From Candidatus Saccharimonadota bacterium (GTDB lineage: Bacteria > Patescibacteriota > Saccharimonadia > Saccharimonadales > UBA4665), in contig CP025011.1 of assembly GCA_002952755.1 (NCBI GenBank), positions 1,410,001-1,442,000 of the forward strand: a DNA stretch of 32,000 bases, read 5' to 3'. Each line of letters opens with the position of its first letter. The first letter of the stretch is position 1. The notes below the pieces were generated by a model that was given only the letters and a program-made list of their open reading frames with translations, did no database searches and was not told the origin of the DNA. Shown in pieces: positions 14,486-32,000 of the stretch. The translations under genes were made by a program, and so were the position numbers.

Positions 14486-14491
14486 GAACAT

Positions 14492-15636: not shown

Positions 15637-15650
15637 GGAGCAGTATTTAC

Positions 15651-15741: not shown

Positions 15742-15746
15742 GTATA

Positions 15747-15790: not shown

Positions 15791-15804
15791 TTATTTTAGG
15801 CAGG

Positions 15805-16398: not shown

Positions 16399-16544
16399 CG
16401 TAGCATTATTGGTTGGTAGAGGGAAGTATGCGCGCTGCTTACGATCATGAGGGGGGTGTTAGCATCTCAGACCGATGCTCATCTTTACAAACTGAGATAC
16501 GGTGACTGTCTGCAAAACAGTCGCAAAGCTGCTATCATCGGAAG

Positions 16545-17138: not shown

Positions 17139-17240
17139 CTCTACATCTGCTATCAGTAGAGTGGGTCTATCTTGCATCGCTCCCCCGTTCAGTCGCTTTA
17201 GGCGTAGACCTGCACCGTATGCTCGTTCACTCTATACAAT

Positions 17241-17280
17241 CAAAACAAAACAGCCTACTACTGCAGACTGTTTTGTTTTG
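17241..17280. terminator. bidirectional hairpin terminator abutting tRNA-Ser(GCT)
   Basis: CAAAACAAAACAG-N14-CTGTTTTGTTTTG, a 13-bp perfect stem. Lies between the HD gene and the tRNA 3' end. Confidence 0.7.
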
Positions 17281-17371
17281 GCGGAGAGGGAGGGATTCGA
17301 ACCCTCGCGGGAACTTGCGCCCCCCTATCGATTTAGCAAACCGACCCCTTCAGCCGCTTGGGTACCTCTCC
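17279..17371 (-). tRNA. tRNA-Ser (anticodon GCT)
   Basis: Reverse complement is GGAGAGGTACCCAAGCGGCTGAAGGGGTCGGTTTGCTAAATCGATAGGGGGGCGCAAGTTCCCGCGAGGGTTCGAATCCCTCCCTCTCCGCCA. Anticodon arm TCGGT-TTGCTAA-ATCGA. Long variable arm. CCA is encoded. Confidence 0.9.
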
Positions 17372-17590
17372 ATATGGACCAAGTTATTGTACTACAATTG
17401 GTCTCTGTTGGCGAGTGATTTTAAAGACTTTGTTTCGAAGTCGACACCGGCACTTCGTTGTTCGATATACCCAAATCTCTTTTGCCGCTCGCGGGTAGTG
17501 CGGATGCGAACGATATGCGGCAATTGCCGCAGCACTTTCTGCACGGCCCATAGATAACACCCGTTTTTGAATAATACCTAAATGAGCTAC

Positions 17591-17627
17591 ATCATAATTT
17601 CCATTTTCCATGGGCTGGCCTTGGAAG
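17591..17627. repeat. R1: ~37-nt repeat, copy 1
   Basis: ATCATAATTTCCATTTTCCATGGGCTGGCCTTGGAAG matches 18029-18063 apart from two single-nt indels. Confidence 0.7.
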
Positions 17628-17628
17628 A

Positions 17629-17848
17629 GGTTGGAAAATCAGAATGAATGCAGATCGTACAAGGCGGGGGCGTCTGCTTCGAAGACTGGACGTGGGGAAG
17701 GGGTGGGATCGCTCCGTTTCACTTCGCTCCGCCGCTCGGACATGCTCGGTGCAAGCACCTGCGCGTGTCTTCGCTCTACCGAACCCACGGTGACGCGACG
17801 CTTGCGCGCCGCTCTCACCGTGGGTTCGAATCCCACACTCAACCGCCA
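17629..17848 (+). other. GC-rich tRNA-like segment built from tRNA-Ser fragments (pseudo-tRNA or unknown structured RNA)
   Basis: Ends CACCGTGGGTTCGAATCCCAC-ACTCAACC-GCCA, with an intact T arm identical over 21 nt to that of tRNA-Ser(TGA). It is followed immediately by the shared terminator. No D arm or anticodon arm could be found. Also contains GGAAGGGGTGGGAT (17696-17709, a copy of 17887-17900) and the 13-bp inverted repeat GAACCCACGGTGA (17781-17793) / TCACCGTGGGTTC (17815-17827). Confidence 0.35.
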
Positions 17849-17850
17849 AA

Positions 17851-17880
17851 GCAAAAGCCCGCTTTCATGCGGGCTTTTGC
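17851..17880. terminator. bidirectional hairpin terminator
   Basis: GCAAAAGCCCGC-TTTCAT-GCGGGCTTTTGC, a perfect 12-bp stem flanked by AAA and TTT. Lies between the tRNA-like segment and tRNA-Ser(TGA). Confidence 0.8.
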
Positions 17881-17882
17881 TT

Positions 17883-17970
17883 TGGCGGAAGGGGTGGGAT
17901 TCGAACCCACGGTGAGTTGCCCCACGACGGTTTTCAAGACCGTTACCATCGACCGCTCGGTCACCCTTCC
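17883..17970 (-). tRNA. tRNA-Ser (anticodon TGA)
   Basis: Reverse complement is GGAAGGGTGACCGAGCGGTCGATGGTAACGGTCTTGAAAACCGTCGTGGGGCAACTCACCGTGGGTTCGAATCCCACCCCTTCCGCCA. Anticodon arm ACGGT-CTTGAAA-ACCGT. CCA is encoded. Confidence 0.9.
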
Positions 17971-18072: not shown

Positions 18073-18735
18073 TTAGGCGGCAGCGAAAACTGCTGCGCTT
18101 ACTCGGCGGGCTCCGGCGCTTTTTAGCGCTTGAGCGGCCGCTTCGCATGTTGCACCCGTTGTAAGAACATCATCAATCAAAAGTACATGCTGGTTTAACA
18201 ATTCTGGTCGAATGGCCCGGAATGCATTCCGCATCTGGCGCTGACGTTGTGTGCGTTTTTGTCCCACTTGGCGCTGCTCTCCGGTGCGCACGAGCAAGGT
18301 AGCGTAAGAAATACCGACACGCCTGGCCAAAGCACGGGCAATAAGCGCAGCCTGGTCGTACCCACGTTGGCGTACGCGTGCGGGCGCGGTTGGTATGTGA
18401 CTAATAACAGTACACTCTCTCACTTCTAGGCAGTCGGCGAGCAAAGCAGCCATGTCATCGGCCGCTTTGCGACAACGGTCAAATTTTAACTTATATACAA
18501 GCTCTTTGGCTGCAGCATCGTACATTGTGCCCACCCACACCCTATATAAATTTGACGTCGATCTACAAAGGCGACAAGTACGAAAATCGTCAGTCAACCG
18601 CTTGCAGCGATAGCAGCGCGACGGAAAGGCAGGGATGGTTTGGCTGCACGAAGCACATAATAAGCGTCCTTCACTACCGCACAATAGGCAGTCATAAGGG
18701 GCCACGAGGGAGAGTAATTGATCTACTATGCTCAT
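18073..18735 (-). CDS. comFC: ComF family protein (phosphoribosyltransferase-like competence protein)
   Basis: N-terminal zinc-finger-like CLLCGSEGRLLCASC ... CYRCKR ... CRLC, plus the PRTase motif VLLIDDVLTTGAT. Met15 of the track ORF (18735, MSIVDQLL) is the preferred start. Confidence 0.85.
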   Translation of the reverse strand: MSIVDQLLSLVAPYDCLLCGSEGRLLCASCSQTIPAFPSRCYRCKRLTDDFRTCRLCRSTSNLYRVWVGTMYDAAAKELVYKLKFDRCRKAADDMAALLADCLEVRECTVISHIPTAPARVRQRGYDQAALIARALARRVGISYATLLVRTGEQRQVGQKRTQRQRQMRNAFRAIRPELLNQHVLLIDDVLTTGATCEAAAQALKSAGARRVSAAVFAAA

Positions 18736-18857
18736 GTTGTATTTTTTGTGTTGTAAATAACCCGTTTGCGGTTGCAACCTAAATATTACCTAAGCTATAC
18801 TACCATTAACACAAACATTCGAACACCTTAGAACTAAGTACGTGGAGGGTAACAACT

Positions 18858-19343
18858 ATGGCGCGACGCACAAGTGGCGACGACGACCTGCTCATGCAAG
18901 AGGACGAATTAACCGCCGCTTTTTTGGGTGATGATGAAGCAATTGCTCCAGCAGATACCCAGAGCGCAGGCGCTGGACCAACGGCCGCAAATGATGATTG
19001 GGACGAAAGCGAAGACCTGCCAGGGCAACTCGCAGTAGACGTATACGAAACCAGAGAAAAACTGGTTGTAAAAGCCCGGACTGCCGGTGTAAATAAGAGT
19101 GACCTTGACGTTAGTATTTCTGACAACACACTCAGTATTCGCGGCACATTATCTGCCGGCAACGAAGACGGAGTAGAGAACTACTTTGTTCAGGAATGCT
19201 ACTGGGGCGAATTCTCTCGCAGCATTGCGCTGCCGGTGCCAGTTAAGGAAGAAGAGATCGAAGCTGTTCTTAAAGACGGCGTCCTTACCATCAGCTTTGC
19301 AAAAGTAAAACAGGATACGGTAAAAAAGATCCAGGTCCTCTAA
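18858..19343 (+). CDS. Hsp20/alpha-crystallin family small heat shock protein
   Basis: Alpha-crystallin domain: QLAVDVYETREKLVVKARTAGVNKSDLDVSISDNTLSIRG ... GEFSRSIALP ... IEAVLKDGVLTISFAK. GGAGGG Shine-Dalgarno 8 nt upstream of the ATG. Confidence 0.9.
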   Translation: MARRTSGDDDLLMQEDELTAAFLGDDEAIAPADTQSAGAGPTAANDDWDESEDLPGQLAVDVYETREKLVVKARTAGVNKSDLDVSISDNTLSIRGTLSAGNEDGVENYFVQECYWGEFSRSIALPVPVKEEEIEAVLKDGVLTISFAKVKQDTVKKIQVL

Positions 19344-19360
19344 AAAACTGCCAGAACTAT

Positions 19361-19390
19361 AAAACACCATCGTTCATCCGATGGTGTTTT
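19361..19390 (+). terminator. rho-independent terminator of hsp20
   Basis: AAAACACCATCG-TTCATC-CGATGGTGTTTT, a perfect 12-bp stem with a T-run. Confidence 0.8.
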
Positions 19391-19641
19391 ATTATATGCA
19401 AAACGCAACAGGTCCGCTGGCCATATAGACTCACCCCCTTTAAAAATAATGTATATGGTACCTGAGTGAGGCTAATTTTATTTCAGCATTCCTGGCAACA
19501 GTGCCTGGTATATTGTGTGGAAATTAATTCAGGGTGGGAGCGAGAGAAGGACAGATGCCAATGCTTACGTCTAGTGTTATCAGCTCATACTGTACGGTAT
19601 GCTGCCTCATAGACCTGCTCTTATATTCTCAGCCCATATAT

Positions 19642-19672
19642 AAAAACCCGCCTTTTTTAGGGGCGGATTTTT
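19642..19672. terminator. hairpin terminator at the 3' end of the pilin array
   Basis: AAAAAC-CCGCC-TTTTTTAGG-GGCGG-ATTTTT, 24 nt beyond the stop codon of the last pilin gene (19696). The A and T runs allow it to work in both directions. Confidence 0.5.
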
Positions 19673-19695
19673 GACGTGTTCGAAATAAATGTAGC

Positions 19696-20148
19696 TTACG
19701 GTCCTGCCGGCGCTCCGGTGCCCGTATTGTTCACTTTGTCGAAGACAAACTTAACAACAACTTGTGCCAGAGCAACGATAACGAGGCCGATTACCGCATA
19801 CACAATAGTGTTTTTGGCGCTGGTAATATTGCCTGAATCGCCCCCGGAAGTAATGTACTTAAAGCCGCCAAGCACGATCATGATAACGGCAATAATACCG
19901 ACTACGATAGAGAAAATGTTTATAACCGTAGTAACAATATTCTGGACTTTGGTCGCCGATGATTGGTCGGCACTCGTATCAGCAGTACAAGTCTGGCCAT
20001 TACCAGCAGTGCTCAACCCGGTGCCTTGAGATAAGCAGTCGCCGATAGTAGGAGCTGCATGCACCGCAACAGGCACTAGCGCAGGCACAATGCTAAGCGC
20101 AAGAGTGGCGACGATAGCCGCGAAATGCTTACGAACGGTTTGTAACAT
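19696..20148 (-). CDS. VirB2/TrbC-like T4SS pilin paralog a
   Basis: Signal peptide ending VAVHA/AP. Variable Cys-bracketed region (C38...C54). Conserved core INIFSIVVGIIAVIMIVLGGFKYITSGGDSGNITSAKNTIVYAVIGLVIVALA, i.e. two TM helices around a GGxxYxTSxGD loop. AAAGGA Shine-Dalgarno sequence. Candidate extended -10 TGGTATAAC upstream. Confidence 0.75.
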   Translation of the reverse strand: MLQTVRKHFAAIVATLALSIVPALVPVAVHAAPTIGDCLSQGTGLSTAGNGQTCTADTSADQSSATKVQNIVTTVINIFSIVVGIIAVIMIVLGGFKYITSGGDSGNITSAKNTIVYAVIGLVIVALAQVVVKFVFDKVNNTGTGAPAGP

Positions 20149-20228
20149 AATGAAATGTCCTTTCTTTGAACGCTTTATTTACGTTATACCACAGGCATAA
20201 GCCGCATTACAATGGCACCGGAAAAAAA

Positions 20229-20678
20229 TTAGGATCTTGCTTTGGCCTTAACTGGGGGCGGGGTAGCAGTCGAGGTAGTGACGACATACTTAACGAGAAT
20301 TTGAGCAAAGAACACCAATACCAAGCCAATAATTGCGTACGTAATAGTTTGCTTAGCCTTGGAAACAGCATTGGCGTCACCCCCAGAAGTTATATAACGA
20401 AACCCGCCAACCATCATCATAATCACCGCAACAATACCGACTATGATACTAAGTATGTTCACTGCCGAAGCAATCGTATTGTCCAGGGATGGGCCGCTAC
20501 TTACACACACTGCGCCAGTACCCGGATTTGTCCAGGTACCCCCCGAACCAATACAAGCCTGCTGCTTAGCAGCATCAGTAGAAGTGTCGGCCGAAGCTGG
20601 AGCGGGTAACAGCCAGTTGCTCGCAACGACGCTAATAAGAGTTACGCTTATGAGCAATATACGCCTGAATATATACAT
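20229..20678 (-). CDS. VirB2/TrbC-like T4SS pilin paralog b
   Basis: Signal peptide ending PASA/DT. Cys pair C42...C58. Core VNILSIIVGIVAVIMMMVGGFRYITSGGDANAVSKAKQTITYAIIGLVLVFFA, the closest match to paralog a. GGAGG Shine-Dalgarno sequence. Confidence 0.75.
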   Translation of the reverse strand: MYIFRRILLISVTLISVVASNWLLPAPASADTSTDAAKQQACIGSGGTWTNPGTGAVCVSSGPSLDNTIASAVNILSIIVGIVAVIMMMVGGFRYITSGGDANAVSKAKQTITYAIIGLVLVFFAQILVKYVVTTSTATPPPVKAKARS

Positions 20679-20688
20679 GTTGCCTCCA

Positions 20689-21102
20689 TTATTTCACGAT
20701 ATTAACAGCTAGGGCAAGAATTGCTTGGGCAAGAAGAATAACGAGCAGCCCAATGCCTGCAGCAATCATGGTACGCCGGGCGTTCGCCGCTTTATTGGGA
20801 TCGCCAGCGGCCGTAACATAATTAAAACCACCGACTATCATTAAAATTACCGCGGCGATACCTGAGACAGTCGACAGTATGAGCCCAACCTTGTACAAAA
20901 TGCCGTTGGTGCCGCCAATAGGATTTTGCCCACTCGTCGTACAAACCGTTGAAGGGTTTTTGCCGGGCGTATTAGTCACACCTGTGTTCGAGCAGGCGTT
21001 TTGAAATGGATTAAAAGCTGCTGCTGAATGTGGTAAGAAAACAAAGACGATTCCAAACGCCAGTACAAAAACCGTAACCAGCAAGCGCGTATGTCGCAAC
21101 AT
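20689..21102 (-). CDS. VirB2/TrbC-like T4SS pilin paralog c
   Basis: Signal peptide ending HSAAA/F. Cys pair C37...C54. Core LILSTVSGIAAVILMIVGGFNYVTAAGDPNKAANARRTMIAAGIGLLVILLA. AGGAGG Shine-Dalgarno sequence. Confidence 0.75.
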   Translation of the reverse strand: MLRHTRLLVTVFVLAFGIVFVFLPHSAAAFNPFQNACSNTGVTNTPGKNPSTVCTTSGQNPIGGTNGILYKVGLILSTVSGIAAVILMIVGGFNYVTAAGDPNKAANARRTMIAAGIGLLVILLAQAILALAVNIVK

Positions 21103-21115
21103 ATTATATTACCTC

Positions 21116-21811
21116 CTATATATGACCAAGTGCATAGTTAACAATCGAGAAGGCAAGCATGGATACAACCAGTCCAATAGCAGCATATATAATCGTGTTT
21201 TTCGTTTTTGCCATAGTATTAGGGTCGCCATTGGAAGTAACGTAGCGCAATCCGGCGATAATCAGCACTAATAACGCCACGCTGCCAAATAGCCCAATCA
21301 CAATATTATAGAGGGAGAGAAGTGTAGTATTTGATGCCGCTGCATTAGGCAGGCTACTTAGGTCTACCCCGCTTGAGGTTTTGCCTGCACCTCCAGTTCC
21401 ACCAAGACTCTCGCCAAGGAACCGTACGGCAGCAGCAGCGACGACGGTGATTCCTAGACCCACGAGGGAATTAATAATGGTGCCGAGGGCATGCTTGGCT
21501 TTTTCGGGTTCACCCTGCGCGGTTATATATTGAAAGCCGGCATACACGATAAACCCGATGGCAACCAGAGCGCCGACACGGAGCAAAATATCGACAACAC
21601 CAAGACCGACCAAACCAATCGAGCTAAGATCAAGATTACCGGTTGTATGATCAATAAAATGCGGGTCCACCGAACAAAGACCGCTCGAATCTATTGTTAC
21701 GTACTTCGCCCTGTCGAGATACTCAAACCACGAAGGGATCCCAAAGAAATTTCCTGGCTCCGGGCAGGGGCTCGCTCCAGCGGCAAAATGAGTCAATATA
21801 TCCAAAAACAT
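21116..21811 (-). CDS. tandem double-domain VirB2/TrbC-like pilin paralog d
   Basis: Two copies of the core in one ORF: VGALVAIGFIVYAGFQYITAQGEPEKAKHALGTIINSLVGLGITVVA and GLFGSVALLVLIIAGLRYVTSNGDPNTMAKTKNTIIYAAIGLVVSMLA, joined by a Gly/Ser-rich linker. The N-terminus (MFLDILTHFAAGASPCPEPGNFFGIPSWFEYL) has no obvious signal peptide. No clear Shine-Dalgarno sequence. Confidence 0.7.
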   Translation of the reverse strand: MFLDILTHFAAGASPCPEPGNFFGIPSWFEYLDRAKYVTIDSSGLCSVDPHFIDHTTGNLDLSSIGLVGLGVVDILLRVGALVAIGFIVYAGFQYITAQGEPEKAKHALGTIINSLVGLGITVVAAAAVRFLGESLGGTGGAGKTSSGVDLSSLPNAAASNTTLLSLYNIVIGLFGSVALLVLIIAGLRYVTSNGDPNTMAKTKNTIIYAAIGLVVSMLAFSIVNYALGHI

Positions 21812-21839
21812 GTCGATACCAGATACCGTTCATTACTCA

Positions 21840-22454
21840 TTATAGGATACCTCCGGGTGTAATCCACTGCAGGAAGGCCCACAAAAATCCAAAGGCTATA
21901 ATCGCTATAACCGCATTAATAATACGCTGCTGAGCCGCTGCTGTGACATTCGGCTGGTCTGCCGAGGTGCTGTACTGAATACCCGCGACAATAATAGAAA
22001 TGACAGCGGCAAGTACTACCACGACAGCCAATGTATTAATAATGGGATTTAGGTATTGGCGAACGATGCTGCACTGCTGCTGCGGGTCGAGTTCTGTTGG
22101 GCAATTGTTCCCACCTTTTGCGGCATTGTCAGTGCTGCCCGACGCGGTCTGAGCCTGGACGACATTCTTGGCTTGAAAAACGTCCCCGGAACAGTCGGAT
22201 TGCGATACCCAGCCTTTCGCGGCATCCGATAGGGTGTAACATTTACCGGCTGCAAAGATGCCTTTACTCGGAGCTTTACCGTCCACGGGAAGGGTAGGAG
22301 TATCTGCGCATTGTGTAGTTATGCCAGCTAGTGCGTCAAAACATAATGCAGGACTGGCAGCGTGCACAATGGCTGCCGGAAATACTGCCGACGGTACCGC
22401 GACTGCCGCACTGAAGAGGACTACTTGAATTATGTGTTTTACGCGCTGCAGCAT
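21840..22454 (-). CDS. VirB2/TrbC-like T4SS pilin paralog e (long ectodomain)
   Basis: Signal peptide ending AIVHA/AS. A ~115-aa Cys-containing variable region. Core INTLAVVVVLAAVISIIVAGIQYSTSADQPNVTAAAQQRIINAVIAIIAFGFL, the most diverged of the paralogs. Confidence 0.65.
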   Translation of the reverse strand: MLQRVKHIIQVVLFSAAVAVPSAVFPAAIVHAASPALCFDALAGITTQCADTPTLPVDGKAPSKGIFAAGKCYTLSDAAKGWVSQSDCSGDVFQAKNVVQAQTASGSTDNAAKGGNNCPTELDPQQQCSIVRQYLNPIINTLAVVVVLAAVISIIVAGIQYSTSADQPNVTAAAQQRIINAVIAIIAFGFLWAFLQWITPGGIL

Positions 22455-22738
22455 ATCTTCCGTTTTTTAGTTCTGCTTATTATAGAGTATAGGTCATCGC
22501 AGAATAATCACAAGCTACCCCGTATTTACACTTATCCCTACTCGCGTCATCCCGGATCTATTCTTACCGACTTCATGTATTCCGCTGCTGGATGTCGGTC
22601 AAGTCCGGGAGGACCAAGAGTGGACGTTTTAAGACATGCGCGGGCACGAGCAGACGGGTATAAGCAACCGCATGCTCGTTGTATTAAATAGTGCCTGCTG
22701 CTACACTTTAACTTGAAAGCAAAGAGATACTACAAAGC
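22455..22738. promoter_or_regulatory. divergent intergenic control region between the pilin array and the T4SS-like operon
   Basis: 284-bp ORF-poor spacer between the divergent starts at 22454 (minus) and 22739 (plus). Contains the inverted repeat ACGAGCA (22646-22652) / TGCTCGT (22673-22679). No consensus promoter is assigned with confidence. Confidence 0.4.
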
Positions 22739-23173
22739 ATGCGTCCTCGTCGATTAATCGTCATAGCTTCGCTGGCAACCATCATTTTAGTGGCCATTCC
22801 TTTGATTTTTATTCATAAGGGCGATGGTTATCGTGGTGTTTGTGACTCGCTACTAAAAGATATTCAAAAAAACGATGCTGCCAGCAGCTACAGTTTGCTT
22901 TCTGATACAGCCAAACGCACTGACTCGCTTTCTAGCTGGACGGGTAAAGTAAAGTTGCTCTACAACGTCTACTATAAAAGTACAGTTACGCCCGTAAAAA
23001 GTGTCGATTTAACCACCACTGTCAATAAAAAGAAGGGGCCGACGCGTATCGAGTACGTCTATACGGTTACTAATCAATTTGCCACCTCCGATGCACTTTG
23101 CTACGCCACGAAGCCTTCAGGCTATAAAGTAGATTCTTTCTCGAGCGCAGTGAGACAGGAGGGCACTCAATGA
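22739..23173 (+). CDS. small N-terminally anchored protein (possible NTF2-like / VirB8-like accessory)
   Basis: 144 aa. N-terminal TM segment (LIVIASLATIILVAIPLIFI), then a ~110-aa domain whose pattern (LLKDIQKNDAASSYSLLSDTAKR...) recalls small NTF2-like lipoprotein domains. ATGA overlap with the next gene. The functional assignment is an inference only. Confidence 0.55.
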   Translation: MRPRRLIVIASLATIILVAIPLIFIHKGDGYRGVCDSLLKDIQKNDAASSYSLLSDTAKRTDSLSSWTGKVKLLYNVYYKSTVTPVKSVDLTTTVNKKKGPTRIEYVYTVTNQFATSDALCYATKPSGYKVDSFSSAVRQEGTQ

Positions 23174-26100
23174 GGCGCCCTAAAGTTGCGAAAATTGGGC
23201 ACTCGTTTCAGCAAGCCACTATCATTTTCGCCGCCCTAGTTGGAATCATTCTGCCTGCGACCGCACCTTTTCTCAAAACCAGCCATGCAGATGAGGTTGG
23301 AACGTCTTTTACTACTATAAATGGAGGCATATTCAAGGGTCCCGGCGGTGGAGTACCTATCGCTCATGCTATTGCATGTAAGGGGGGCATGATACCGGGA
23401 CAGACGCTTGCGGCCACTAGTATAGATACGTCACTCGGCCGAAATCCGGCTGGCGATTCTGGCAACACCTTCAATGATGTCTATAATTCTACCGGTATGT
23501 ATGCTGGCTTGCCCCGGCAGACAAACATCTTCGGATATCTGGGTCTTCCTGCTGCTGGCCGCGACCCTGGTGCCATACCCGAAGCAACAGCCACTGCATG
23601 GACATCATATATTTATGACCACTTTAACCAGCGAGTTACCACCCTAGGCCTTTTTCAAGGAGTAAATGGGCCTGGCCTGGACCCATGCGGATCAGGGCCA
23701 AACCGTCAATCAGATACGCCGCATCTTGTCATGATTCCAGTCGCTGACGATACTTGGGTCGCGTCGCAGTACAGCAATATTATTGCACAGGGAGGAGTTG
23801 GACAGCCAGCCCTGATTATCTTTCATCAAACCGGGCTGTCTCCTGCGGGTAACGCTGTTGGCTCCCTCTCATATTGGTACCCTGATTCCAGTAAAGGTAT
23901 AGGCATGGCCTACAAGGGGCTGGACACTCAGGGTAAGCCTATCAACGGCGGCCCTCAGCAGAACGTTATCGTTGAGGGCGTGTCCACCTCATCTAATCCT
24001 GTTGCTACAGGTAATGTCTCTAACGCTGAGTGGGTAGACGTGTCGACTATTAAAATACAGGTGAGCTACAATGGCGGCGCACCTATTACAGAAACGTACA
24101 TCAACCCTTCGTGGGATAATCATAGTTTCTATTTCCTGGCGAGCACTCCAAGCCCGACTCGTCAGGCCCTTATAGGCGCGGCCAAACAAGCCGATCCGTT
24201 CAGTAACGCCGCGCAAAACCAGGTACCTTTTATATGGATTCCGGACGCCGGCTTTACCGAACATAACGGCGAAGGTATTCTTAACTTATCCTACGATCGG
24301 CTCAGTCAGAGCCCGGGACTTGGTGACCTAAATCATAACATCGCCGGGTACACGTTTGCCAATCCGGCGTTTTATGATTACTCCCCCGGAAACCCGCCTG
24401 TGCCTGTTGGCCATGATGGAAAAAATCCGGCCCTTCCGGCAGGTCAGGTTATTACCAATAGCAGCCATCTTAATGGCGATATCTGGTTCTATGGCAGCAA
24501 AGCAAGCAATGCCTTTGTTACTGCTTGGACCAAAGGCAATGGCAACGAGCAGAACTATATTGGAGTCTACACCTTTGACAATGCATCAAAGTTTTACGTG
24601 CACAGTGCCAAAGACTGTTCTGCGCTTGGCCAGATTAATTTAGGCACAACTATTGATAATATTACGCCGAACACAGAATTTCCGATACCGAAGTGGACCC
24701 TAGAGCCGCCGGGCCAATCCTGTCAGCCCCCTGCATATGGCAGCATCACCAAAGCATATGCAATTATTGATGACCAAAAATTCACGGCTATCTCGGGCAT
24801 TATAGCCGGCGCTGCTGCCAATTCGAATGGAAATAACCAGCAGTTGATATGTGATATCGGATGGAATCCTCTCACATGGCTGATTTGCCCGATCGCCCAA
24901 GGCGCCATCTCTCTGGCTGGTACGTTCGATACTGCCATCAACGACATGCTCAATATAAGCGTCAATACCTATCTAGACGAAAGTAAGCCCGGATCGGCAG
25001 GGGCAGATTTTTATGCAGCCTGGAACAGTTTCCGCGTTATCTCCATGGCGCTCATTGTAATTGCTGGGTTGATAATGGTGATGTCGCAAGCGCTGGGTGC
25101 CGAACTACTGAATGCTTACACCATCAAAAAAATGCTGCCTCGATTGCTCATGGCCGTCGTGTTCATTGCTGCTTCATGGCAACTACTTAAAGCGGCGGTA
25201 ACTGCATCAGACGTGGTCGGCTACGGGACACGTTATCTTATCTACAAGCCATTTAGTACGGGGTTAGGTGCCGCCCACATTGGCGCAGGCACATCCGACG
25301 TTCTAGGAGTGTTAGGGGGTGCGGCTGTTGTTGGCCTAGGTATTTTTGGCATCTTGAGCTTTGCACTTACTGGTCTACTTGCGTCACTGGTTGGATTCGT
25401 GTTGCTTACGTTCCGGGAAATGGTCGTTTTATTTGCGATTGCAATATCTCCTGTCCCCATCGCACTCTCTATCTTGCCGAATACCCGTAAGGGCTGGAAG
25501 ATTTGGGGGGATACTCTGAGCGGCGCACTCCTGATGTTCCCGATTGTGGCTGGCTTTATCGCGATAGGCCATGTCTTTGCTCAAGTCGCCGCAAAAGTAA
25601 ATGCCGGCGTGATCGGCCAACTCATATTTATCATCGCCTACTTTGCACCATACTTCCTTATTCCTTTAGCCTTCCGTCTGGCTGGCGGCCTGGTAGCCAC
25701 AGTAGGTGGAGTAGTGAACGACCGCAGCAAGGGTGCCTTTGACCGTCTTAAGAATTATCGCTCCAACAAATTCAAAACCAACATGCAAAAGGTTGCTGAA
25801 GGACGGCGCTTTAACGAGCTTGGTCAATTCCAAAGTAATAACCTGCTTGCACGGACAGCTAACCGGGGTATTCGCGGGCTCAACCGGGGTATTAGTGGTT
25901 TTAATGATACAACTGAGGTCGCCGGTGCTTTCGGTGCAGCAGAAGCAAAATTCGGTTTCTTAACGAATCGGGGAATACGCCAAGCTGCCCTAAGCCAACA
26001 TCGTGACATGGTTGGCGCCAAATACGCTCAGACCGGACGGGCGCAGGCGACCAAGGAAGACGACCTACTGCACCAAGCACGAACGTTCGGCAGCGAAGAA

Positions 26101-27141
26101 GAAGCGCGTGCCGGCCTCGCTGCCCGCTTCCGAAATATGAATTACGACGTCAACACTGACGAAGGACGCCGCAACATGGAAGCAGCCCTTTCTGCCGCCC
26201 GGGCAGCAGGCGGATACAGCAGGGCATACCAACGCTACTCATTGCGTCGCCTTGCAGCTACAGGAACTGGCTATGGTGACGTGGGCGACATGCTGCGTGC
26301 AGTAAGTGACGTGGCCGGAGATAATCGCGCCGAAGCTTCTGCCTTGCTCGGCGAATTAAATGCTGTTTCTGGCAATGTAGGCCGTCACGACCTCAAGCTT
26401 GGGTACGGTACTCAAATGCGCTTGTACGACCGGCTTCAGGCAGCCGGCCACCTGACCGAGGAAGAAGTTGACGATGCGGTGTATACAGCCGATAAAGACC
26501 TCGATAGCGTCAGCCGTATTCGCGACAAAAAGGTCTCCGTCGAAAACCTGAGCAAATCAACGGCACGGGTGTTTAGGCGCCTGGAGGTTCAGCGCGATAC
26601 TGCCACTGACCCTGTTGTCATACAACAAGCTCGCGACGAACTGGATCGAGCAACGGGCCTTATCAACAAGGCGGAATCAGCCTTTGCATATGGATCTACG
26701 ACGAATGTACAGGCTACTAATGATAACGTCGGCCGTGCGACCAGCGGCGCAAATACCGGCCTGGTAGTCGAAAACGCCGCGTATAACCCCGCGCTTCCGC
26801 CCTCACCGACAAATCCGCAAACTATATACGTTCCCGCCACTGGCCGGCGACGTGTGCAAATGGAGGCTAACCCTGTGGAAACAAAGATTAACCCAACAAC
26901 TGACCGACCTGAAATTACCTACGAGATCGCTCGCTATCCCGCAGGACATGCGTTGGCGGGGCAGGAAATTATCGACGAATTTGGTACTCCAACACTATAT
27001 AGAGATCCTGACACTGGCCGCCCCGTTCTCAGACAAAATCCAGCTACGAATGCTGTCACACAGCGTTCTGCGGAAAACCAACGTATCTACGGCGTAGGCA
27101 CGGGCACGGGCGACCCTCAAAACAACGGTCTTATAACCTAA
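23170..27141 (+). CDS. 1323-aa VirB6/TrbL-like polytopic membrane protein with large N-terminal ectodomain and C-terminal cytoplasmic domain
   Basis: AGGAGGG Shine-Dalgarno sequence. Signal peptide (IIFAALVGIILPATAPFLKTSHA/DE). A ~570-aa Gly/Asn/Pro-rich extracytoplasmic region. A cluster of ~6-7 TM helices at aa ~615-850 (nt ~25010-25720). A ~470-aa charged Arg/Ala/Asp-rich C-terminal region. The position and topology match the VirB6-type channel subunit of Gram-positive T4SSs (ConG/PrgH/TcpH class). Confidence 0.7.
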   Translation: MRRPKVAKIGHSFQQATIIFAALVGIILPATAPFLKTSHADEVGTSFTTINGGIFKGPGGGVPIAHAIACKGGMIPGQTLAATSIDTSLGRNPAGDSGNTFNDVYNSTGMYAGLPRQTNIFGYLGLPAAGRDPGAIPEATATAWTSYIYDHFNQRVTTLGLFQGVNGPGLDPCGSGPNRQSDTPHLVMIPVADDTWVASQYSNIIAQGGVGQPALIIFHQTGLSPAGNAVGSLSYWYPDSSKGIGMAYKGLDTQGKPINGGPQQNVIVEGVSTSSNPVATGNVSNAEWVDVSTIKIQVSYNGGAPITETYINPSWDNHSFYFLASTPSPTRQALIGAAKQADPFSNAAQNQVPFIWIPDAGFTEHNGEGILNLSYDRLSQSPGLGDLNHNIAGYTFANPAFYDYSPGNPPVPVGHDGKNPALPAGQVITNSSHLNGDIWFYGSKASNAFVTAWTKGNGNEQNYIGVYTFDNASKFYVHSAKDCSALGQINLGTTIDNITPNTEFPIPKWTLEPPGQSCQPPAYGSITKAYAIIDDQKFTAISGIIAGAAANSNGNNQQLICDIGWNPLTWLICPIAQGAISLAGTFDTAINDMLNISVNTYLDESKPGSAGADFYAAWNSFRVISMALIVIAGLIMVMSQALGAELLNAYTIKKMLPRLLMAVVFIAASWQLLKAAVTASDVVGYGTRYLIYKPFSTGLGAAHIGAGTSDVLGVLGGAAVVGLGIFGILSFALTGLLASLVGFVLLTFREMVVLFAIAISPVPIALSILPNTRKGWKIWGDTLSGALLMFPIVAGFIAIGHVFAQVAAKVNAGVIGQLIFIIAYFAPYFLIPLAFRLAGGLVATVGGVVNDRSKGAFDRLKNYRSNKFKTNMQKVAEGRRFNELGQFQSNNLLARTANRGIRGLNRGISGFNDTTEVAGAFGAAEAKFGFLTNRGIRQAALSQHRDMVGAKYAQTGRAQATKEDDLLHQARTFGSEEEARAGLAARFRNMNYDVNTDEGRRNMEAALSAARAAGGYSRAYQRYSLRRLAATGTGYGDVGDMLRAVSDVAGDNRAEASALLGELNAVSGNVGRHDLKLGYGTQMRLYDRLQAAGHLTEEEVDDAVYTADKDLDSVSRIRDKKVSVENLSKSTARVFRRLEVQRDTATDPVVIQQARDELDRATGLINKAESAFAYGSTTNVQATNDNVGRATSGANTGLVVENAAYNPALPPSPTNPQTIYVPATGRRRVQMEANPVETKINPTTDRPEITYEIARYPAGHALAGQEIIDEFGTPTLYRDPDTGRPVLRQNPATNAVTQRSAENQRIYGVGTGTGDPQNNGLIT

Positions 27142-27219
27142 TTTACGACCTTAAGATGGCAGAGATAACGCCGCTCATCTACCCATACTGGCTCATATAG
27201 TAATTACATAAGCACTATA

Positions 27220-27249
27220 TTGACATTATACCAATCATGTGTTTATAAT
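27220..27249 (+). promoter_or_regulatory. near-consensus sigma70 promoter inside the T4SS-like operon
   Basis: -35 TTGACA (27220-27225), 18-nt spacer, -10 TATAAT (27244-27249). An ATG at 27256 lies 6 nt after the -10 and opens a 14-codon mini-ORF (27256-27300) that overlaps the 27285 start codon out of frame. Confidence 0.6.
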
Positions 27250-27284
27250 TTAGATATGAAAAATTCACTCTTAGGCTGGTCGAC

Positions 27285-29162
27285 ATGGCTTTTCCAATAG
27301 CACTAGTAGGGGAATTTCCTGAACTGGCACATCGAAATCCGAATGTGATGATCGAGCCACGAGTGGCCGATGTACCCGGCAATCCATTGACCGTCCAAGA
27401 CCGAACCGCAAACATACATGCTGTCCACGACGAAATGAGCAACTTGCGCCGACAGCTTATAGATATGAATCGGGCTGAAGGAAATCTATTACCTGGCGGG
27501 AATGTCGGCAACTTAACAGCAGGCATAGACCCCCGCGGCCGAAGTAGCACGCGGGCGGCATATAGCGCTAACCTGCGACGAGATCGTCTTACGCGACAAC
27601 ACGAAGCCATAGACGACCGTTTACACTCGCTATCCGACACTCAAGAAAGGTTACGAGATCTCGTAAATACGGGAGGGAATCTCGATGACCATATACCCGG
27701 TATCGGGGACCGCATCGAAGCGGCACAAAACGTCGAAGACGCCTCCGAGCGCATGGTTGACGGCGCCGAAGCCGCAGAGCAGCGTGCACGAGCTGTCGAA
27801 AACTACCGCTACCACACTATGGAAGCACGCATGGCTTTTGAAGCGGCACACCCAGAACCGCATGCAGATGCCGACCGGCAACTAGTGCTCCGGCTCAGAA
27901 TGAACAGCCTCATTGGCTGCGCGATTAACGCGTCACTTGGTGACCCTAATGAGCAGCGACTAGGTGGCCGTGGCAATAGGGAAGCAGCCCTGGGGCGAGA
28001 AGAGCACTCGAGACAACTTGCATATGCTATTGCCGCGCGTGACGAGTTGGAAGGTTTATCGTTTTTGACCAGCGATACATTCGAGCCGCTCATTACGAGG
28101 CACATAATTGCAAGACAGCGTTCAGCCAACCTTGGTTTTGAGGTTGATATACGATTAAGCAAAACTCGTATTGGCGATGAGCTTGAGCAAAATGACGTCA
28201 ATGTCGTAAACCATACACAAGATCTCCGTATGGAAACTATTGAGGGGATGCAAATCCATTCTACTGGTCGTGCCAACGAGCTGGCTGACGCCATTATTGC
28301 GGACTACCGTAACGAAGAACGCCTTGCACACCGCCCTGATCAGAGCCTCAACACGTACGACAGAGTCTACACTCGGGATGGCGGCATACTAACTCATCAT
28401 GGCGTAGTCAGGTATGATGACGGAAGTCAGGCCCGATACAATGGTACGAACTGGGTAAGGAGAAACTCTGACGGTAATGTATGGACCGGGCGGCCGACAG
28501 CAAACTTCAACGTGCCGGGCTTTTATACTGACGGATCTTTGGATACCTTACCGCTCAACGATTTCTATGATAGAGTGCTCGAGAGGCGGGATCGGGCTGA
28601 AGAAGTCCGAGGTCCGAACGCAACTCGCGAGGCCTATTTTATGGACCGGGCTTTTACTGAAAGATGTACGGCTGAGATTGCAAACATAAACACTCTCACC
28701 GACCAACTTCGCGGTCAAGTCACTGACTTAGACACTTACAGGACTGAGTGGCAAAATGAAATGGCACAAATTCAAGGACGCTACGCTCCCGGTACCCCGC
28801 CAGCTAACTATGCGCAAGCCGACTGGAGTCGTTGGAGCAAGCTACATGACGCTATTACGCTTAATCAAGCCAACACCAATCTACTCCATCAGCAAATCCA
28901 TGATGCTGAAGCACCTATAGGTGACATCCGGATCGCTGAGAACGTCACACGCTACTGGATGGCACGTTACGAAGTAAACTATCGTAATCCAAGGGACACA
29001 TCGAACAATCGCACGATGAGTCGTCGCGGCCACGTATTTCTAGATAATGTCACTATAAACGGTGTCCATGGTAACTGGGAGATAGCCATTGGCGGTAGTG
29101 GATATCATACCGACCCTAACACCGGTGTAGCCACTTATTACCATCCGGATGGCACCGTTTAG
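27285..29162 (+). CDS. hypothetical 625-aa soluble protein (orphan; candidate secreted substrate or accessory factor)
   Basis: Long ORF with no TM segment or signal peptide, no Shine-Dalgarno sequence, and no motif I can recognise. Arg/Asp/Glu/Ala-rich helical N-terminal half and an Asn/Gly/Tyr/Thr-rich C-terminal half. The start codon is uncertain. Confidence 0.6.
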   Translation: MAFPIALVGEFPELAHRNPNVMIEPRVADVPGNPLTVQDRTANIHAVHDEMSNLRRQLIDMNRAEGNLLPGGNVGNLTAGIDPRGRSSTRAAYSANLRRDRLTRQHEAIDDRLHSLSDTQERLRDLVNTGGNLDDHIPGIGDRIEAAQNVEDASERMVDGAEAAEQRARAVENYRYHTMEARMAFEAAHPEPHADADRQLVLRLRMNSLIGCAINASLGDPNEQRLGGRGNREAALGREEHSRQLAYAIAARDELEGLSFLTSDTFEPLITRHIIARQRSANLGFEVDIRLSKTRIGDELEQNDVNVVNHTQDLRMETIEGMQIHSTGRANELADAIIADYRNEERLAHRPDQSLNTYDRVYTRDGGILTHHGVVRYDDGSQARYNGTNWVRRNSDGNVWTGRPTANFNVPGFYTDGSLDTLPLNDFYDRVLERRDRAEEVRGPNATREAYFMDRAFTERCTAEIANINTLTDQLRGQVTDLDTYRTEWQNEMAQIQGRYAPGTPPANYAQADWSRWSKLHDAITLNQANTNLLHQQIHDAEAPIGDIRIAENVTRYWMARYEVNYRNPRDTSNNRTMSRRGHVFLDNVTINGVHGNWEIAIGGSGYHTDPNTGVATYYHPDGTV

Positions 29163-29227
29163 CTAAGCCTGTAGTCTTTTTAATAACACTACAAGCAGCC
29201 CTTACTCTCGCGTATACTATGTAAGTA

Positions 29228-30496
29228 ATGTCTACCTACAAGGTCATTCAGGATGTGGAGGCCGAGGACAAGCTCATTGGGCCGTTGTCGCTTCGGCAGT
29301 TTATCTATGCCGGCATTTCGGCTATCTGCTTGTATCTTTGCTATTTCTTAAGCACGCATCATGCGGCGTTCTTGACGATCGTCTTGATCCCGGTTGCTTT
29401 TATATCGGGCTTTTTTGCATTCCCTTGGGGGAGGGACCAGCCGACCGAACTCTGGGCGCTGGCCAAGATCCGCTTTTTTTTGAAACCCCGTCGCAGAGTC
29501 TGGGATCAGGATGGCGTCAAGGAACTGGTGACCATTACAGCGCCTAAGCATGTACAGGTTGATTACACCAACGGCCTTTCGCAAGACGAAGTGCACAGCC
29601 GGCTGCAGGCGCTGGCCGCCACCATTGATAGCCGTGGTTGGGCTATTAAGAATGCCAACCTCACTGTGTCTACCCAGCCAACGCTCGTCATGGGCGATCC
29701 GCAGTCCGACCGTCTGGTGAATCCCAGCTCCTTACCCCAACCTGTATCCGACGTGCAGATAAGCGCTGCCGACGACATTCTGGACGAAAAGAACAATGCA
29801 GCAGCGTCACGTGTCGACAGTATGATTTCGGCCAGCTCAAAAGCGCACCGTGATAAACTACTGGAAGAGATGCGCAAAAAGGATGCGCCAACCCTGCCGC
29901 CGCCGCCAAAGTCCGCAGCTACAGCAGCGGCTCCACAGAAGCCAAACGACTACTGGTTCCTCAATCAGCCCGCCCAGCCTGCCGGTATTCCTAATAATAT
30001 GGTTACTTTTAACACCCAGGTTGTCACCCCGGCCACCCCCAGTACATCCGCGCCTATCTCCGATCCTGTCATAACTTCAGCGGTGACTCCTGTACAAAGT
30101 ACTACGAGCACTCCACCCCAGGACGAAGCGAGTATCGTCGCCGAACTCGATGCTAAAAAACAGGAATTACCGACAACCGCCTATTACAATCACTTGCACA
30201 CCATTCAACCGCTTTCTGCCCAGCAGCAGGCTAGTACACCTCCAGCGCAATCACCAGACATACCTACCGCTCAACCGGTAGCGCCACAGTACAAATACAA
30301 CGCCGTGACACCCACAACACCGAGCCCCGGTCCCGTTGCTCCGCCGGCCGCTGCAGCCGTAGCAGCGCCGGTGACACCCATTCAGCAGGCTGCTATACTA
30401 CAGCTATCCAGGAATGACGATCTGAATGTGGCCACCTTGGCCCGCGAAGCCGAACGATCGGCACCACAAGACGAAGTCGTCATTAAACTGCATTAA
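29228..30496 (+). CDS. PrgI/VirB3-like T4SS membrane protein with long Pro/Thr/Ala-rich C-terminal tail
   Basis: N-terminal YKVIQDVEAEDKLIGPLSLRQFIYAGISAICLYLCYFL followed by a second TM helix (FLTIVLIPVAFISGFFAF) and the motif WALAKIRFFLKPRRRVW, which is the PrgI-family pattern. Residues ~190-400 are low-complexity P/T/A/Q. Confidence 0.7.
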   Translation: MSTYKVIQDVEAEDKLIGPLSLRQFIYAGISAICLYLCYFLSTHHAAFLTIVLIPVAFISGFFAFPWGRDQPTELWALAKIRFFLKPRRRVWDQDGVKELVTITAPKHVQVDYTNGLSQDEVHSRLQALAATIDSRGWAIKNANLTVSTQPTLVMGDPQSDRLVNPSSLPQPVSDVQISAADDILDEKNNAAASRVDSMISASSKAHRDKLLEEMRKKDAPTLPPPPKSAATAAAPQKPNDYWFLNQPAQPAGIPNNMVTFNTQVVTPATPSTSAPISDPVITSAVTPVQSTTSTPPQDEASIVAELDAKKQELPTTAYYNHLHTIQPLSAQQQASTPPAQSPDIPTAQPVAPQYKYNAVTPTTPSPGPVAPPAAAAVAAPVTPIQQAAILQLSRNDDLNVATLAREAERSAPQDEVVIKLH

Positions 30497-30505
30497 AAGA
30501 GGGAT

Positions 30506-31519
30506 ATGAATCCGAACGCACCAAACCAACCATATTCAGGTGGACAAACTCAGCCGGGCATGCCTTATGTGTCGCAGCAAGCTGCCTCGATGGCACCCGC
30601 TGGGGGCCCGCAGAACGTAGCCGGTGCTCATCCTGTTATTGCCAGCGATCTCATGCACCAGGCAGCTGGCATGGCAGCGTCGGTCGGCGCTCCTGATGCT
30701 TCCGCTGCGCCACAACCAACAAATGTAGTCGCCGGCGGTCCCGCCGCAGCCACTGGGGCAGACGGCAAGCCTTTAGTAGCTACACCACACACCAATCCTA
30801 ACAGCACCCAAAATACGCTGCTAATTGCCGAGATCCGCGACGGTATTGTGATCATGAACGACGGCTCATTCCGATCTGTTGTGATGGTCAAATCAGTCAA
30901 CTTCGACCTGATGAGTCCCCAGGAGCAGGAATCAGTAGAGTATTCGTATCAAGGATTCTTAAACTCGCTCTATTTCCCAATTCAAATCTTCATCCGCTCG
31001 CAAAAAGTGGACTTACAACCATACGTCGAGAAACTCGACAAAATCCGCACCGAGCATGACAACATGCTCCTTGCCATGCTCATGGAAGATTACATTACCT
31101 ATATCGACCAGTTGTCGCAGCAAACCAACATTATGGACAAAAAATTCTACATAGTTATTCCGTACTTTCCGCATGTTGATGTCCAAAAAGCACTCACTCA
31201 AAGCAAGAACTTTTTTACCGGCTTTTTGAACCTATTTAATACCAAAGAACAGCACGTAGTAGTGAATGAAGCCGATCTCGAAAAGGCCAAAACCGAGCTT
31301 CGTAACCGCGTCCAGGCCGTCCTCCAAGGTGCGTTACAATGTGGTATTCAAGGCTTGCCGCTCGACACCCAGGAGCTTATCGAACTATTCTACGACACCT
31401 ATAACCCAGACACGGCTACCCGCCAACAACTAAAGAATTTTGGAAGTCTGACCGCCGATATTATCACTAAAGGGCAAGGGAATGCCCCTCAGGCACACTT
31501 ACAACGGGAGCTCAACTAA
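30506..31519 (+). CDS. T4SS-associated protein: disordered N-terminus plus VirB4 N-terminal-domain-like region, no ATPase motifs
   Basis: AGAGGGA Shine-Dalgarno sequence. The first ~100 aa are Ala/Pro/Gly/Gln-rich. The remainder (LLIAEIRDGIVIMNDGSFRSVVMVKSVNFDLMSPQEQESVEYSYQGFLNSLYFPIQIFIRSQKVDL...) follows the pattern seen at VirB4/TrbE/CagE N-termini. No Walker A motif. The stop codon overlaps the next ATG (TAATG). Confidence 0.55.
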   Translation: MNPNAPNQPYSGGQTQPGMPYVSQQAASMAPAGGPQNVAGAHPVIASDLMHQAAGMAASVGAPDASAAPQPTNVVAGGPAAATGADGKPLVATPHTNPNSTQNTLLIAEIRDGIVIMNDGSFRSVVMVKSVNFDLMSPQEQESVEYSYQGFLNSLYFPIQIFIRSQKVDLQPYVEKLDKIRTEHDNMLLAMLMEDYITYIDQLSQQTNIMDKKFYIVIPYFPHVDVQKALTQSKNFFTGFLNLFNTKEQHVVVNEADLEKAKTELRNRVQAVLQGALQCGIQGLPLDTQELIELFYDTYNPDTATRQQLKNFGSLTADIITKGQGNAPQAHLQRELN

Positions 31520-32000
31520 TGGCACGTAAAAAACAACTTGACCCTGTTGCATTGGCACAGGCCCAGCAGCAGCGCGAACAGCAAGAAGTGGCTGCCGCTT
31601 TCCAAAAGGGTGTCACGGCGCTGCGTGATTTTATCGCGCCAAGCTCCCTGGAATTTAATAGTAGTTATTTTCACCTCGGAACCCGTATGGCACGCACCTA
31701 TTATGTATACGGCTACCCGCGCCAACTATACACCGGTTGGATGAGCAGCATGGTGAACCTCGATGAAGTAATTGATATTTCACTATTTATTTACCCGGTC
31801 GAAAGCCAGGTCGTGCTCGACAACTTGCGTAAAAAAGTCACCCAGCTGGAAGCCGGCATCCAGATCGACTCCGAAAAAGGTCGGGTACGCGACCCGCAAA
31901 AACAGGCCGCCATCCTCGACGCCGAAGAAATGCGTGATAAGTTGCAGGTGGGCGAAGAGCGCTTCTTCCGCTTTGGTTTCTACTTTACCGTCTACGCCGG
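31519..32000 (+). CDS. virB4: VirB4-like T4SS ATPase, N-terminal fragment (runs off the window)
   Basis: This ORF is absent from the supplied track because it has no stop codon in the window. I translated it by hand from ATG 31519 and found 160 open codons. FIAPSSLEFNSSYFHLGTRMARTYYVYGYPRQLYTGWMSSMVNLDEVIDISLFIYPVE and EERFFRFGFYFTVYA match the conserved N-terminal region of Gram-positive VirB4 homologs (ConE/PrgJ/TrsE class). GGGAG Shine-Dalgarno sequence. Confidence 0.75.
   Translation, partial: MARKKQLDPVALAQAQQQREQQEVAAAFQKGVTALRDFIAPSSLEFNSSYFHLGTRMARTYYVYGYPRQLYTGWMSSMVNLDEVIDISLFIYPVESQVVLDNLRKKVTQLEAGIQIDSEKGRVRDPQKQAAILDAEEMRDKLQVGEERFFRFGFYFTVYA

Follow-up and report, generated by a model that had tools for sequence, protein, structure and literature searches.

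The stretch analysed here, hereafter the window, consists of 32,000 nucleotides (nt) of the Candidatus Saccharimonadota contig CP025011.1 (positions 1,410,001 to 1,442,000, forward strand), and our subject is a locus for a type IV secretion system (T4SS) that occupies it from position 19696 to its end. An initial annotation, made from the sequence alone, had described there a T4SS-like locus with VirB2-like pilin genes on the minus strand and a divergent operon on the plus strand. This layout is confirmed by Pfam, NCBIfam and PDB matches, and all the open reading frames (ORFs) it named were recovered where it placed them by ORF listing and translation. The profile searches it had proposed as a check gave matches to the pilin (PF18895), PrgI (PF12666) and VirB4 (conju_CD1110) families alike; the cut-offs are 26.6 bits for PF18895 (T4SS_pilin, gathering cut-off), 27 bits for PF12666 and 325 bits for conju_CD1110 (NCBIfam). 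Its count of five VirB2-like pilin genes is right for the genes, which however encode six pilin domains since one gene is a tandem fusion. More than half of the coding capacity was said to be without a recognizable domain, and we obtained ~62% by count. The features are collected in Table 1.

Table 1. Features of the T4SS locus and its left border in the window (lengths in amino acids, aa; TM, transmembrane).
Feature	Position	Strand	Evidence and remarks
comF-type phosphoribosyltransferase	18073-18777	-	Pfam; outside the apparatus
hsp20	18858-19343	+	Pfam; outside the apparatus
Terminator-like GC hairpin, A/T runs on either side	19648-19666		8-pair stem, 5 GC pairs; consensus match
VirB2-like pilin 1, 150 aa	19696-20148	-	PF18895 E 2.2e-13; TrbC PF04956 28.2 bits; signal peptide and two TM helices
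VirB2-like pilin 2, 149 aa	20229-20678	-	PF18895 E 1.5e-15; topology
VirB2-like pilin 3, 137 aa	20689-21102	-	PF18895 E 8.6e-9; topology
Fused double pilin, 231 aa	21116-21811	-	PF18895 E 3.7e-21, two stretches; four TM helices
Divergent pilin 5, 204 aa	21840-22454	-	PF18895 26.1 bits, half a bit under the cut-off; signal peptide and two TM helices
Divergent intergenic region, 284 nt	22455-22738		One promoter-like match, minus strand, 22513-22486
N-terminally anchored protein, 144 aa	22739-23173	+	TM helix at residues 7-25
Extended VirB6-like polytopic protein (tentative), 1323 aa	23170-27141	+	Topology and weak family links
Soluble near-orphan, 625 aa	27285-29162	+	No signal peptide, no TM helix
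PrgI/VirB3-like protein, 422 aa	29228-30496	+	PF12666 E 2.4e-12, 47.6 bits, residues 5-92
TrsD-like protein, 337 aa	30506-31519	+	NCBIfam TrsD NF041427 E 1e-6; precomputed PF26593 (TraC-like)
VirB4 ATPase, first 160 codons	31519-32000, continues past the window	+	Full length 634 aa on contig L001

A scan with VirB4 as the query, using one genome per species, retrieved at least 488 related loci. Our comparisons rest on the best 80 of these, almost all of which are labelled as Saccharibacteria, Saccharimonadales or Patescibacteria metagenome-assembled genomes and encode a VirB4 83-93% identical to ours; gene maps were drawn for the 57 analysable loci. The sequence past the window end is supplied by the contig L001, which is identical to the window across an overlap of 3163 nt (0 mismatches), and its continuation agrees with a second contig, L087. 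The sequence covered reaches 31 kb upstream and 7.4 kb downstream, and the locus itself extends ~7 kb beyond the window, to recF.

The components that identify the system most clearly lie at the 3' end of the plus-strand operon. The full-length VirB4 scores 361 bits against conju_CD1110 over profile positions 178-734 of 752, i.e. without positions 1-177. It also matches the VirB4 domain of Thermoanaerobacter (PDB 4AG5, E 5e-47) and the Pfam families P-loop_TraG and AAA_10, and its Walker A (KSGAGKS) and Walker B (ILIVDEAW) motifs are intact. The TrsD-like protein, found in 78 of the 80 loci with 61-85% identity, matches positions 11-119 of the same profile and N-terminal parts of other VirB4 profiles. 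The NCBIfam matches thus show VirB4 to be split in two, the TrsD-like protein being equivalent to its detached N-terminal domain. The PrgI-like protein, present in 74 of the 80 loci, has a TM hairpin with helices at residues 25-43 and 47-65. The start of virB4 overlaps the stop of the TrsD-like gene by 1 nt, and the gene for the 144-aa protein overlaps that for the 1323-aa protein by 4 nt, as is expected of one operon.

Both smaller partners of VirB4 carry low-complexity parts. The PrgI-like protein is much longer than its Pfam domain, with a tail of ~330 aa rich in Pro, Ala, Thr and Gln, and it is similarly long in the mapped relatives (328-441 aa). The TrsD-like protein has an N-terminal extension of ~95 aa of low complexity, rich in Pro, Ala, Gly and Gln.

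The six pilin domains of the minus strand share an invariant A/G/Y/T core, and the first one is 22-38% identical to the remaining ones. Relatives of pilin 1 were found in 45 loci with 30-62% identity, and the relatives that are fully covered on the pilin side typically have 5-7 pilin genes, with up to 9. We consider the 231-aa protein to be a head-to-tail fusion of two pilins because it has two pilin stretches and four helices; it has no N-terminal signal-like segment, unlike the other four pilins. Most relatives have two separate genes (~95 and ~130 aa) in its place, the double pilin being split in L002, L007, L016, L024 and L055 and fused in L003, L082 and L084. In pilin 5 the signal peptide is separated from the pilin core by a long Cys-rich region. 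The protein aligns on the invariant core, and its orthologues in L082 and L084 have a weak T4SS_pilin match. The pilin operon probably ends at the hairpin just 3' of the last pilin gene, and the divergent intergenic region is presumed to hold promoters for both directions. The gap of 350 nt between hsp20 and the last pilin gene (19344-19695) has two terminator-like hairpins, i.e. the one just mentioned and another at ~19363-19392, and contains neither an ORF of at least 60 aa nor an Rfam match.

The 1323-aa protein consists of a signal or anchor segment, an ectodomain of ~580 aa, ~7 TM helices (residues 620-849) and a hydrophilic C-terminal tail of ~470 aa. Homologues occupy the same position in ~59 loci and are conserved in the TM core alone, the nearly invariant residues of the family being C561, W570, C573, R622, Y650, P657 and R658. 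The family is linked to known VirB6 analogues by TrbL (PF04610), which matches 5 of 50 members at E<=0.01 (best E 1.9e-4), and by precomputed TrbL_3 (PF19590) matches on the L082 orthologue and on P0003/P0004, of which our own hmmscan did not reproduce the one on L082. An NCBIfam search with the 1323-aa protein gave nothing significant, nor did a search of the PDB with the 50-member family profile. From its topology and these weak sequence links we tentatively regard the protein as VirB6-like. In relatives the ectodomains have adhesin-type Pfam matches, i.e. Peptidase_S74, CarboxypepD_reg, SdrD_B and fn3_3. The best profile matches were F-BAR and haemagglutinin coiled coils, and we rejected them as noise.

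Relatives of the 144-aa protein were found in L082, L084 and L003 only, with 21-32% identity. Cys35 and Cys121 are invariant in this family, and the protein therefore probably sits outside the cell; we consider it a candidate accessory subunit of the T4SS. With its N-terminal TM anchor it is also a candidate for a VirB8/NTF2-like subunit. Neither the protein nor its four-member family profile has a Pfam or PDB match, and the protein has no NCBIfam match either. An AlphaFold2 (AF2) model from the single sequence reached a predicted local distance difference test (pLDDT) score of 44.7, too low for use. Word-indexed homologue searches with the 144-, 625- and 1323-aa proteins returned almost nothing beyond the queries themselves.

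Downstream of virB4, L001 encodes four more proteins, of 866 aa (anchored by a single TM helix), 508 aa (exported, p508; 7206-8732 of L001), 205 aa (PEGA) and 222 aa (anchored), before recF is reached on the other strand. At the position of p508, the second gene 3' of virB4, the relatives encode proteins in which domains of the types Amidase_3, NlpC/P60, CHAP, Phage_lysozyme2, Peptidase_M23 or Amidase_5 are combined in different ways. For p508 itself there is no direct match in Pfam, NCBIfam or the PDB; its residues 346-435 align with E 6e-9 to that part of the L084 protein which contains NlpC/P60, a weak signature. We infer that p508 is probably the cell-wall hydrolase which the window appeared to lack. 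The absence reported by the initial annotation was then an artefact of the window end, as a hydrolase-type gene sits just downstream. Across L001, L003, L005, L016, L024 and L084 this second gene is a mosaic. Profile searches of the window and L001 found no relaxase, type IV coupling protein (T4CP) or integrase among the ORFs of the 31 kb upstream and the 7.4 kb downstream. The initial annotation had pointed out that such genes immediately downstream would indicate an ordinary conjugative element, and the sequence up to recF contains none of them.

Between the VirB6-like gene and prgI the operon has a hypervariable slot. Of the 57 mapped loci, 25 have nothing in this slot and 32 have it filled, mostly with proteins of 130-790 aa that are encoded on the plus strand and lack a TM helix. 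Almost none of the slot proteins is similar to another, while VirB4 is 83-93% identical in the same loci. Eight large slot proteins were scanned and none has a significant Pfam domain. There are exceptions, e.g. L014 and L007 hold a split-off piece of VirB6 (the C-terminal domain) in the slot, and L031 and L077 hold an S-adenosylhomocysteine (AdoHcy) hydrolase and a PfkB kinase on the opposite strand.

In the window the slot is taken by the 625-aa protein, for which an exhaustive HMMER search over 1.84 billion (1.84e9) representative proteins found 4 relatives. Two full-length relatives could be placed, and they occupy the same slot in L082 and L084. These two loci have the architecture of the window also in other respects, with a homologue of the 144-aa protein (154 and 173 aa), a VirB6-like protein of 1336 and 1313 aa, respectively, and a fused double pilin. 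The 625-aa protein is only 28-31% identical to these relatives, where VirB4 is 96% identical. Its AF2 model, built from an alignment of 5 sequences (pLDDT 65.6), consists mostly of long helices and two small beta modules. Foldseek found no PDB match at E<0.1 for this model, coiled-coil look-alikes appearing at E>0.1 only, and no fold was assigned. We also considered whether the 625-aa protein is a split-off C-terminal domain of VirB6, and rejected this as there is no similarity by phmmer or by the family hidden Markov model.

The locus has a recurring gene order in dozens of Saccharimonadales genomes. It starts with comF, hsp20 and, on one strand, five to nine pilin genes. On the other strand follow the VirB6-like gene, variable genes (none to a few), PrgI, TrsD, VirB4, a protein of 800-1050 aa, the hydrolase, the PEGA protein and sometimes another small protein. 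The right border is formed by recF, dnaN and dnaA, and the series recF-dnaN-dnaA was confirmed in L002. The left border, comF and hsp20, is likewise conserved, with the same neighbours in the relatives and in Southlakia epibionticum (SEML1_0020/0021). The G+C content of the locus (0.45-0.56) shows no anomaly against the rest of the window (0.44-0.55).

Within this conserved frame the parts differ widely in their rates of change. VirB4 is 83-93% identical in the loci where recF is 49-78% identical (medians 86% and 58%), and this higher conservation indicates strong purifying selection on the motor. Against L084 the identities are 96% for VirB4, 76% for the TrsD-like protein, 69% for PrgI, 53-66% for the pilins, 55% for the 866-aa protein, 44% for the VirB6-like protein, 29% for the 144-aa protein and 28% for the 625-aa protein.

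Our analysis shows that the translocon is of the Gram-positive type, i.e. mating-pair formation (MPF) type FATA, with the split VirB4/TrsD, the PrgI/VirB3 hairpin and the extended, tentatively VirB6-like polytopic protein as its parts. The locus further encodes six divergent VirB2-like pilin domains and, 3' of virB4, envelope and putative peptidoglycan-remodelling proteins. No Pfam or NCBIfam match was found for the parts of the Gram-negative MPF-T type, i.e. VirB7/9/10, VirB5, VirB11 and VirD4, and only VirB2-like pilins are held in common with it. It is a vertically inherited chromosomal locus near the replication genes, not an island. We regard it as very likely that it is the copy, in an uncultured Saccharimonadales bacterium, of the chromosomal, pilus-encoding T4SS found across Saccharimonadia, which in the Saccharibacteria lies beside the origin of replication. 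The initial annotation had suggested a chromosomal, possibly non-conjugative T4SS for host contact, which is supported by the labels of the relatives, the conserved flanks, the conjugation genes not being seen and a published syntenic cluster. The synteny comparison it had proposed revealed the same gene order across Saccharimonadales species. Its description of the locus as atypically organised is true only in comparison to classical systems, the layout being standard for Saccharimonadia. The system has been described already (Wang 2023; Quinonero-Coronel 2025), with the same interpretation published for Patescibacteria in general (PMC12102498; PMC12857230), and the window brings no new kind of system; a few fast-evolving genes in the locus are specific to this lineage.

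We propose the following picture of how the machine might work. Hexamers of VirB4, together with TrsD as the detached N-terminal domain, would dock on PrgI/VirB3 and the VirB6-like channel, and would energise and anchor it. The hydrolases would open the cell wall. After processing through the Sec pathway the pilins would be pulled out of the membrane and would polymerise, forming a tube or fibre that extends to the host bacterium the cell lives on. The machine could then move macromolecules across the host contact without conjugation, which is unlikely because neither a relaxase nor a coupling protein lies nearby. For the transport, our best guess is that proteins are exported into the host or onto it. 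The parts that evolve fast are the pilins, the ectodomain of the VirB6-like protein, the 144-aa protein and the slot protein of 625 aa, and we take them to be putative cargo or to face the host, adapting to individual hosts.

Several points weigh against this picture. In no Patescibacterium has a substrate, a direction of transport or even pilus assembly been proven (PMC11665869). The sequence evidence that assigns the 1323-aa protein to VirB6 is weak, as there is no direct Pfam or PDB match. No VirB8-like subunit was identified in the locus, and the hydrolase signature of p508 is weak. Elsewhere in the genome, of which the contig covers 1.45 Mb, a coupling protein or relaxase could also be encoded.

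The main alternative to export is that the pilus and channel serve as an import conduit, which takes cytoplasmic macromolecules of the host (RNA, DNA or nucleotides) into a parasite unable to make nucleotides. The T4SS is essential in S. epibionticum while the competence route through ComEC is dispensable, and a review names the T4SS as a candidate route of nutrient uptake (PMC11665869; PMC12857230). A preprint of 2026 reports uptake of host RNA by a cultivated Patescibacterium, in which tube-like structures at the interface may be T4SS pili; the preprint itself calls the mechanism unresolved, and no transport experiment ties uptake to the T4SS. Export of DNA would call for a coupling protein and a relaxase, and the locus encodes neither. 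However the known importers, i.e. ComB of H. pylori and the archaeal Ced system with its VirB4-like CedB, use partners not seen here, and our VirB4 matches CedB weakly (52.6 bits against a cut-off of 700 bits). We consider import possible, though somewhat doubtful. It is less probable, and in our opinion unlikely, that the VirB4 machine translocates nothing and only assembles a VirB2-type pilus and the VirB6 ectodomain for attachment as an adhesive surface fibre. The six pilin domains and the ectodomain of ~580 aa do evolve fast, the ectodomains of relatives have the adhesin-type matches described above, and the lack of a coupling protein would fit as well. Nevertheless type IV pili already serve Saccharibacteria for adhesion and motility (PMC10633639), the T4SS and the type IV pili are independently essential in S. 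epibionticum (PMC11665869; PMC10633639), and a family of soluble proteins without signal peptides inside the operon is easier to explain as cargo or as a cytoplasmic partner.

The remaining alternative is an ordinary conjugative element, i.e. an integrative conjugative element or an integrated plasmid, with its relaxase, coupling protein and integrase outside the examined sequence. Our VirB4 falls into the conjugative CD1110 family by its NCBIfam score. The order VirB6-VirB3-VirB4-hydrolase at our locus is reminiscent of the operon of pCF10. It resembles Gram-positive conjugative operons, and T4CP homologues are encoded elsewhere in many Patescibacteria genomes, according to the accessible part of a survey of Patescibacteria (PMC12102498). 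The same part of the survey indicates that relaxases are rare in Patescibacteria, with 109 of them recorded (PMC12102498). Moreover VirB4 surpasses recF in conservation, which would be expected for a core gene passed on vertically. We rejected a mobile element because the locus is flanked by housekeeping genes whose order is the same across dozens of species as well as in S. epibionticum, the G+C content is not anomalous, and no integrase, relaxase or T4CP occurs in the sequence covered (31 kb upstream, 7.4 kb downstream); a conjugative element is thus largely refuted and extremely improbable.

With protein export as the preferred reading, the slot deserves attention. We speculate that it is a cargo position, encoding a different soluble protein without a signal peptide in each Saccharimonadales lineage, with the helical 625-aa protein as the version of this lineage. 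The slot proteins would be lineage-specific substrates or effectors delivered by the T4SS into the bacterial host, or adaptors that would recruit substrates in place of the missing coupling protein; we hold this idea very tentatively and think it rather unlikely to be right. If it were true, the slot proteins would be the first candidate cargo for the Saccharibacterial T4SS. What is new here is modest, i.e. the hypervariable slot and its 625-aa occupant as candidate cargo or adaptors, and this is the only lead we pass on. Few machines are known to be essential to the ultra-small bacteria of the candidate phyla radiation in their life as parasites, and the Saccharibacterial T4SS is among them; the window gives a clean example of its standard layout in a soil-type Saccharimonadales lineage. 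The division between frozen parts (VirB4 and TrsD) and parts with fast turnover (pilins, VirB6 ectodomain, hydrolase domains and slot protein) suggests where to seek host specificity or cargo in cultivable relatives.

Other features of the window lie outside the apparatus. Four tRNA genes, three of them for serine, are found within 2.5 kb at 15497-17970 (Arg-GCG, Ser-CGA, Ser-GCT and Ser-TGA), and a tRNA-Ser gene adjoins comF also in S. epibionticum. These four tRNAs were the only result of an Rfam scan of the window, which gave no RNA element in the intergenic regions. An overlapping pair of a Phd/YefM antitoxin and a PIN-domain toxin is encoded at 14375-15165, next to an ORF of 188 aa without a family. 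The pair lies in the most AT-rich part of the window (13000-15000), with a G+C content of ~0.44 against ~0.51 elsewhere, and this patch may be a small acquired stretch. On the minus strand at 10610-11455 there is a 281-aa protein with the unusual pairing of an N-terminal Cro/C1-type helix-turn-helix domain and a HAD-family hydrolase. The window proteins are found on a public contig of 1,450,269 bases, which is large for a Saccharibacterium as compared to the typical genomes of less than 1 Mb according to a T4SS review.

The closest functional information comes from S. epibionticum ML1, whose genes SEML1_0006-0019 were called an apparent T4SS and were found by transposon sequencing (Tn-seq) to be essential for growth on the host, with the exception of the non-essential NTF2-like gene SEML1_0012; essentiality for epibiotic growth has been shown in this species only (PMC10633639). 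Based on its Tn-seq gene table, not on its sequence, SEML1_0003-0022 mirrors the order of the window almost gene for gene. It runs from recF through two small exported proteins (one of them PEGA), a lysozyme/peptidase, a large anchored protein, VirB4, a 293-aa TrsD-like protein and PrgI to two VirB6-type proteins flanking the NTF2-like protein, six pilins, hsp20, comF and tRNA-Ser. Both clusters are without a relaxase or T4CP. The differences lie in the variable parts. ML1 has two VirB6-type proteins (998 and 1088 aa) around a 278-aa NTF2-like protein with a twin-arginine translocation (Tat) signal, whereas the window has one 1323-aa VirB6-like protein, with the 144-aa anchored protein before it and the 625-aa near-orphan after it. 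The ML1 pilin genes SEML1_0016/0017 (103 and 126 aa) correspond to the one fused 231-aa gene, and in the ML1 hydrolase the lysozyme and Cys-peptidase domains are clear whereas p508 has only a weak NlpC/P60-like end.

The window also agrees with the T4SSs of the Patescibacteria survey, and nothing in the accessible part of that source contradicts it (PMC12102498). There the systems are reported to have a VirB4 related to MPF-FATA, abundant TrsD, PrgI, VirB6 and VirB2 arrays of 2-11 divergent genes, and to be chromosomal, near dnaA and almost without relaxases. The slot between the VirB6-like gene and prgI and the 625-aa family are not described in that part of the survey. A T4SS review of 2025 names these systems as the one monoderm exception with VirB2 pilins (PMC12857230).

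Among the Gram-positive conjugative MPF-FATA systems, Prg of pCF10, Trs of pGO1 and CD1110 of the C. difficile element CTn2 share with the window the CD1110-type VirB4 and PrgI/VirB3, probably also a polytopic VirB6 analogue and multi-domain cell-wall hydrolases after virB4, and likewise have no outer-membrane core complex; pGO1 also has a TrsD-like split N-terminal domain. They differ in having a relaxase and a coupling protein, in being carried on mobile elements and in lacking a VirB2 pilin, whereas our locus is chromosomal, encodes six pilin domains and has neither relaxase nor coupling protein in the region examined. The effector T4SSs of Bartonella, Anaplasma and Rickettsiales likewise have divergent VirB2 paralogues and a VirB6 enlarged by big hydrophilic domains, features thought to serve the interaction with the host (PMC12857230; PMC12102498, the latter in its accessible part). 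Those systems are however of the diderm MPF-T type with VirB7/9/10, VirB11 and VirD4 and have eukaryotic targets, whereas the host of the organism studied here is a bacterium.

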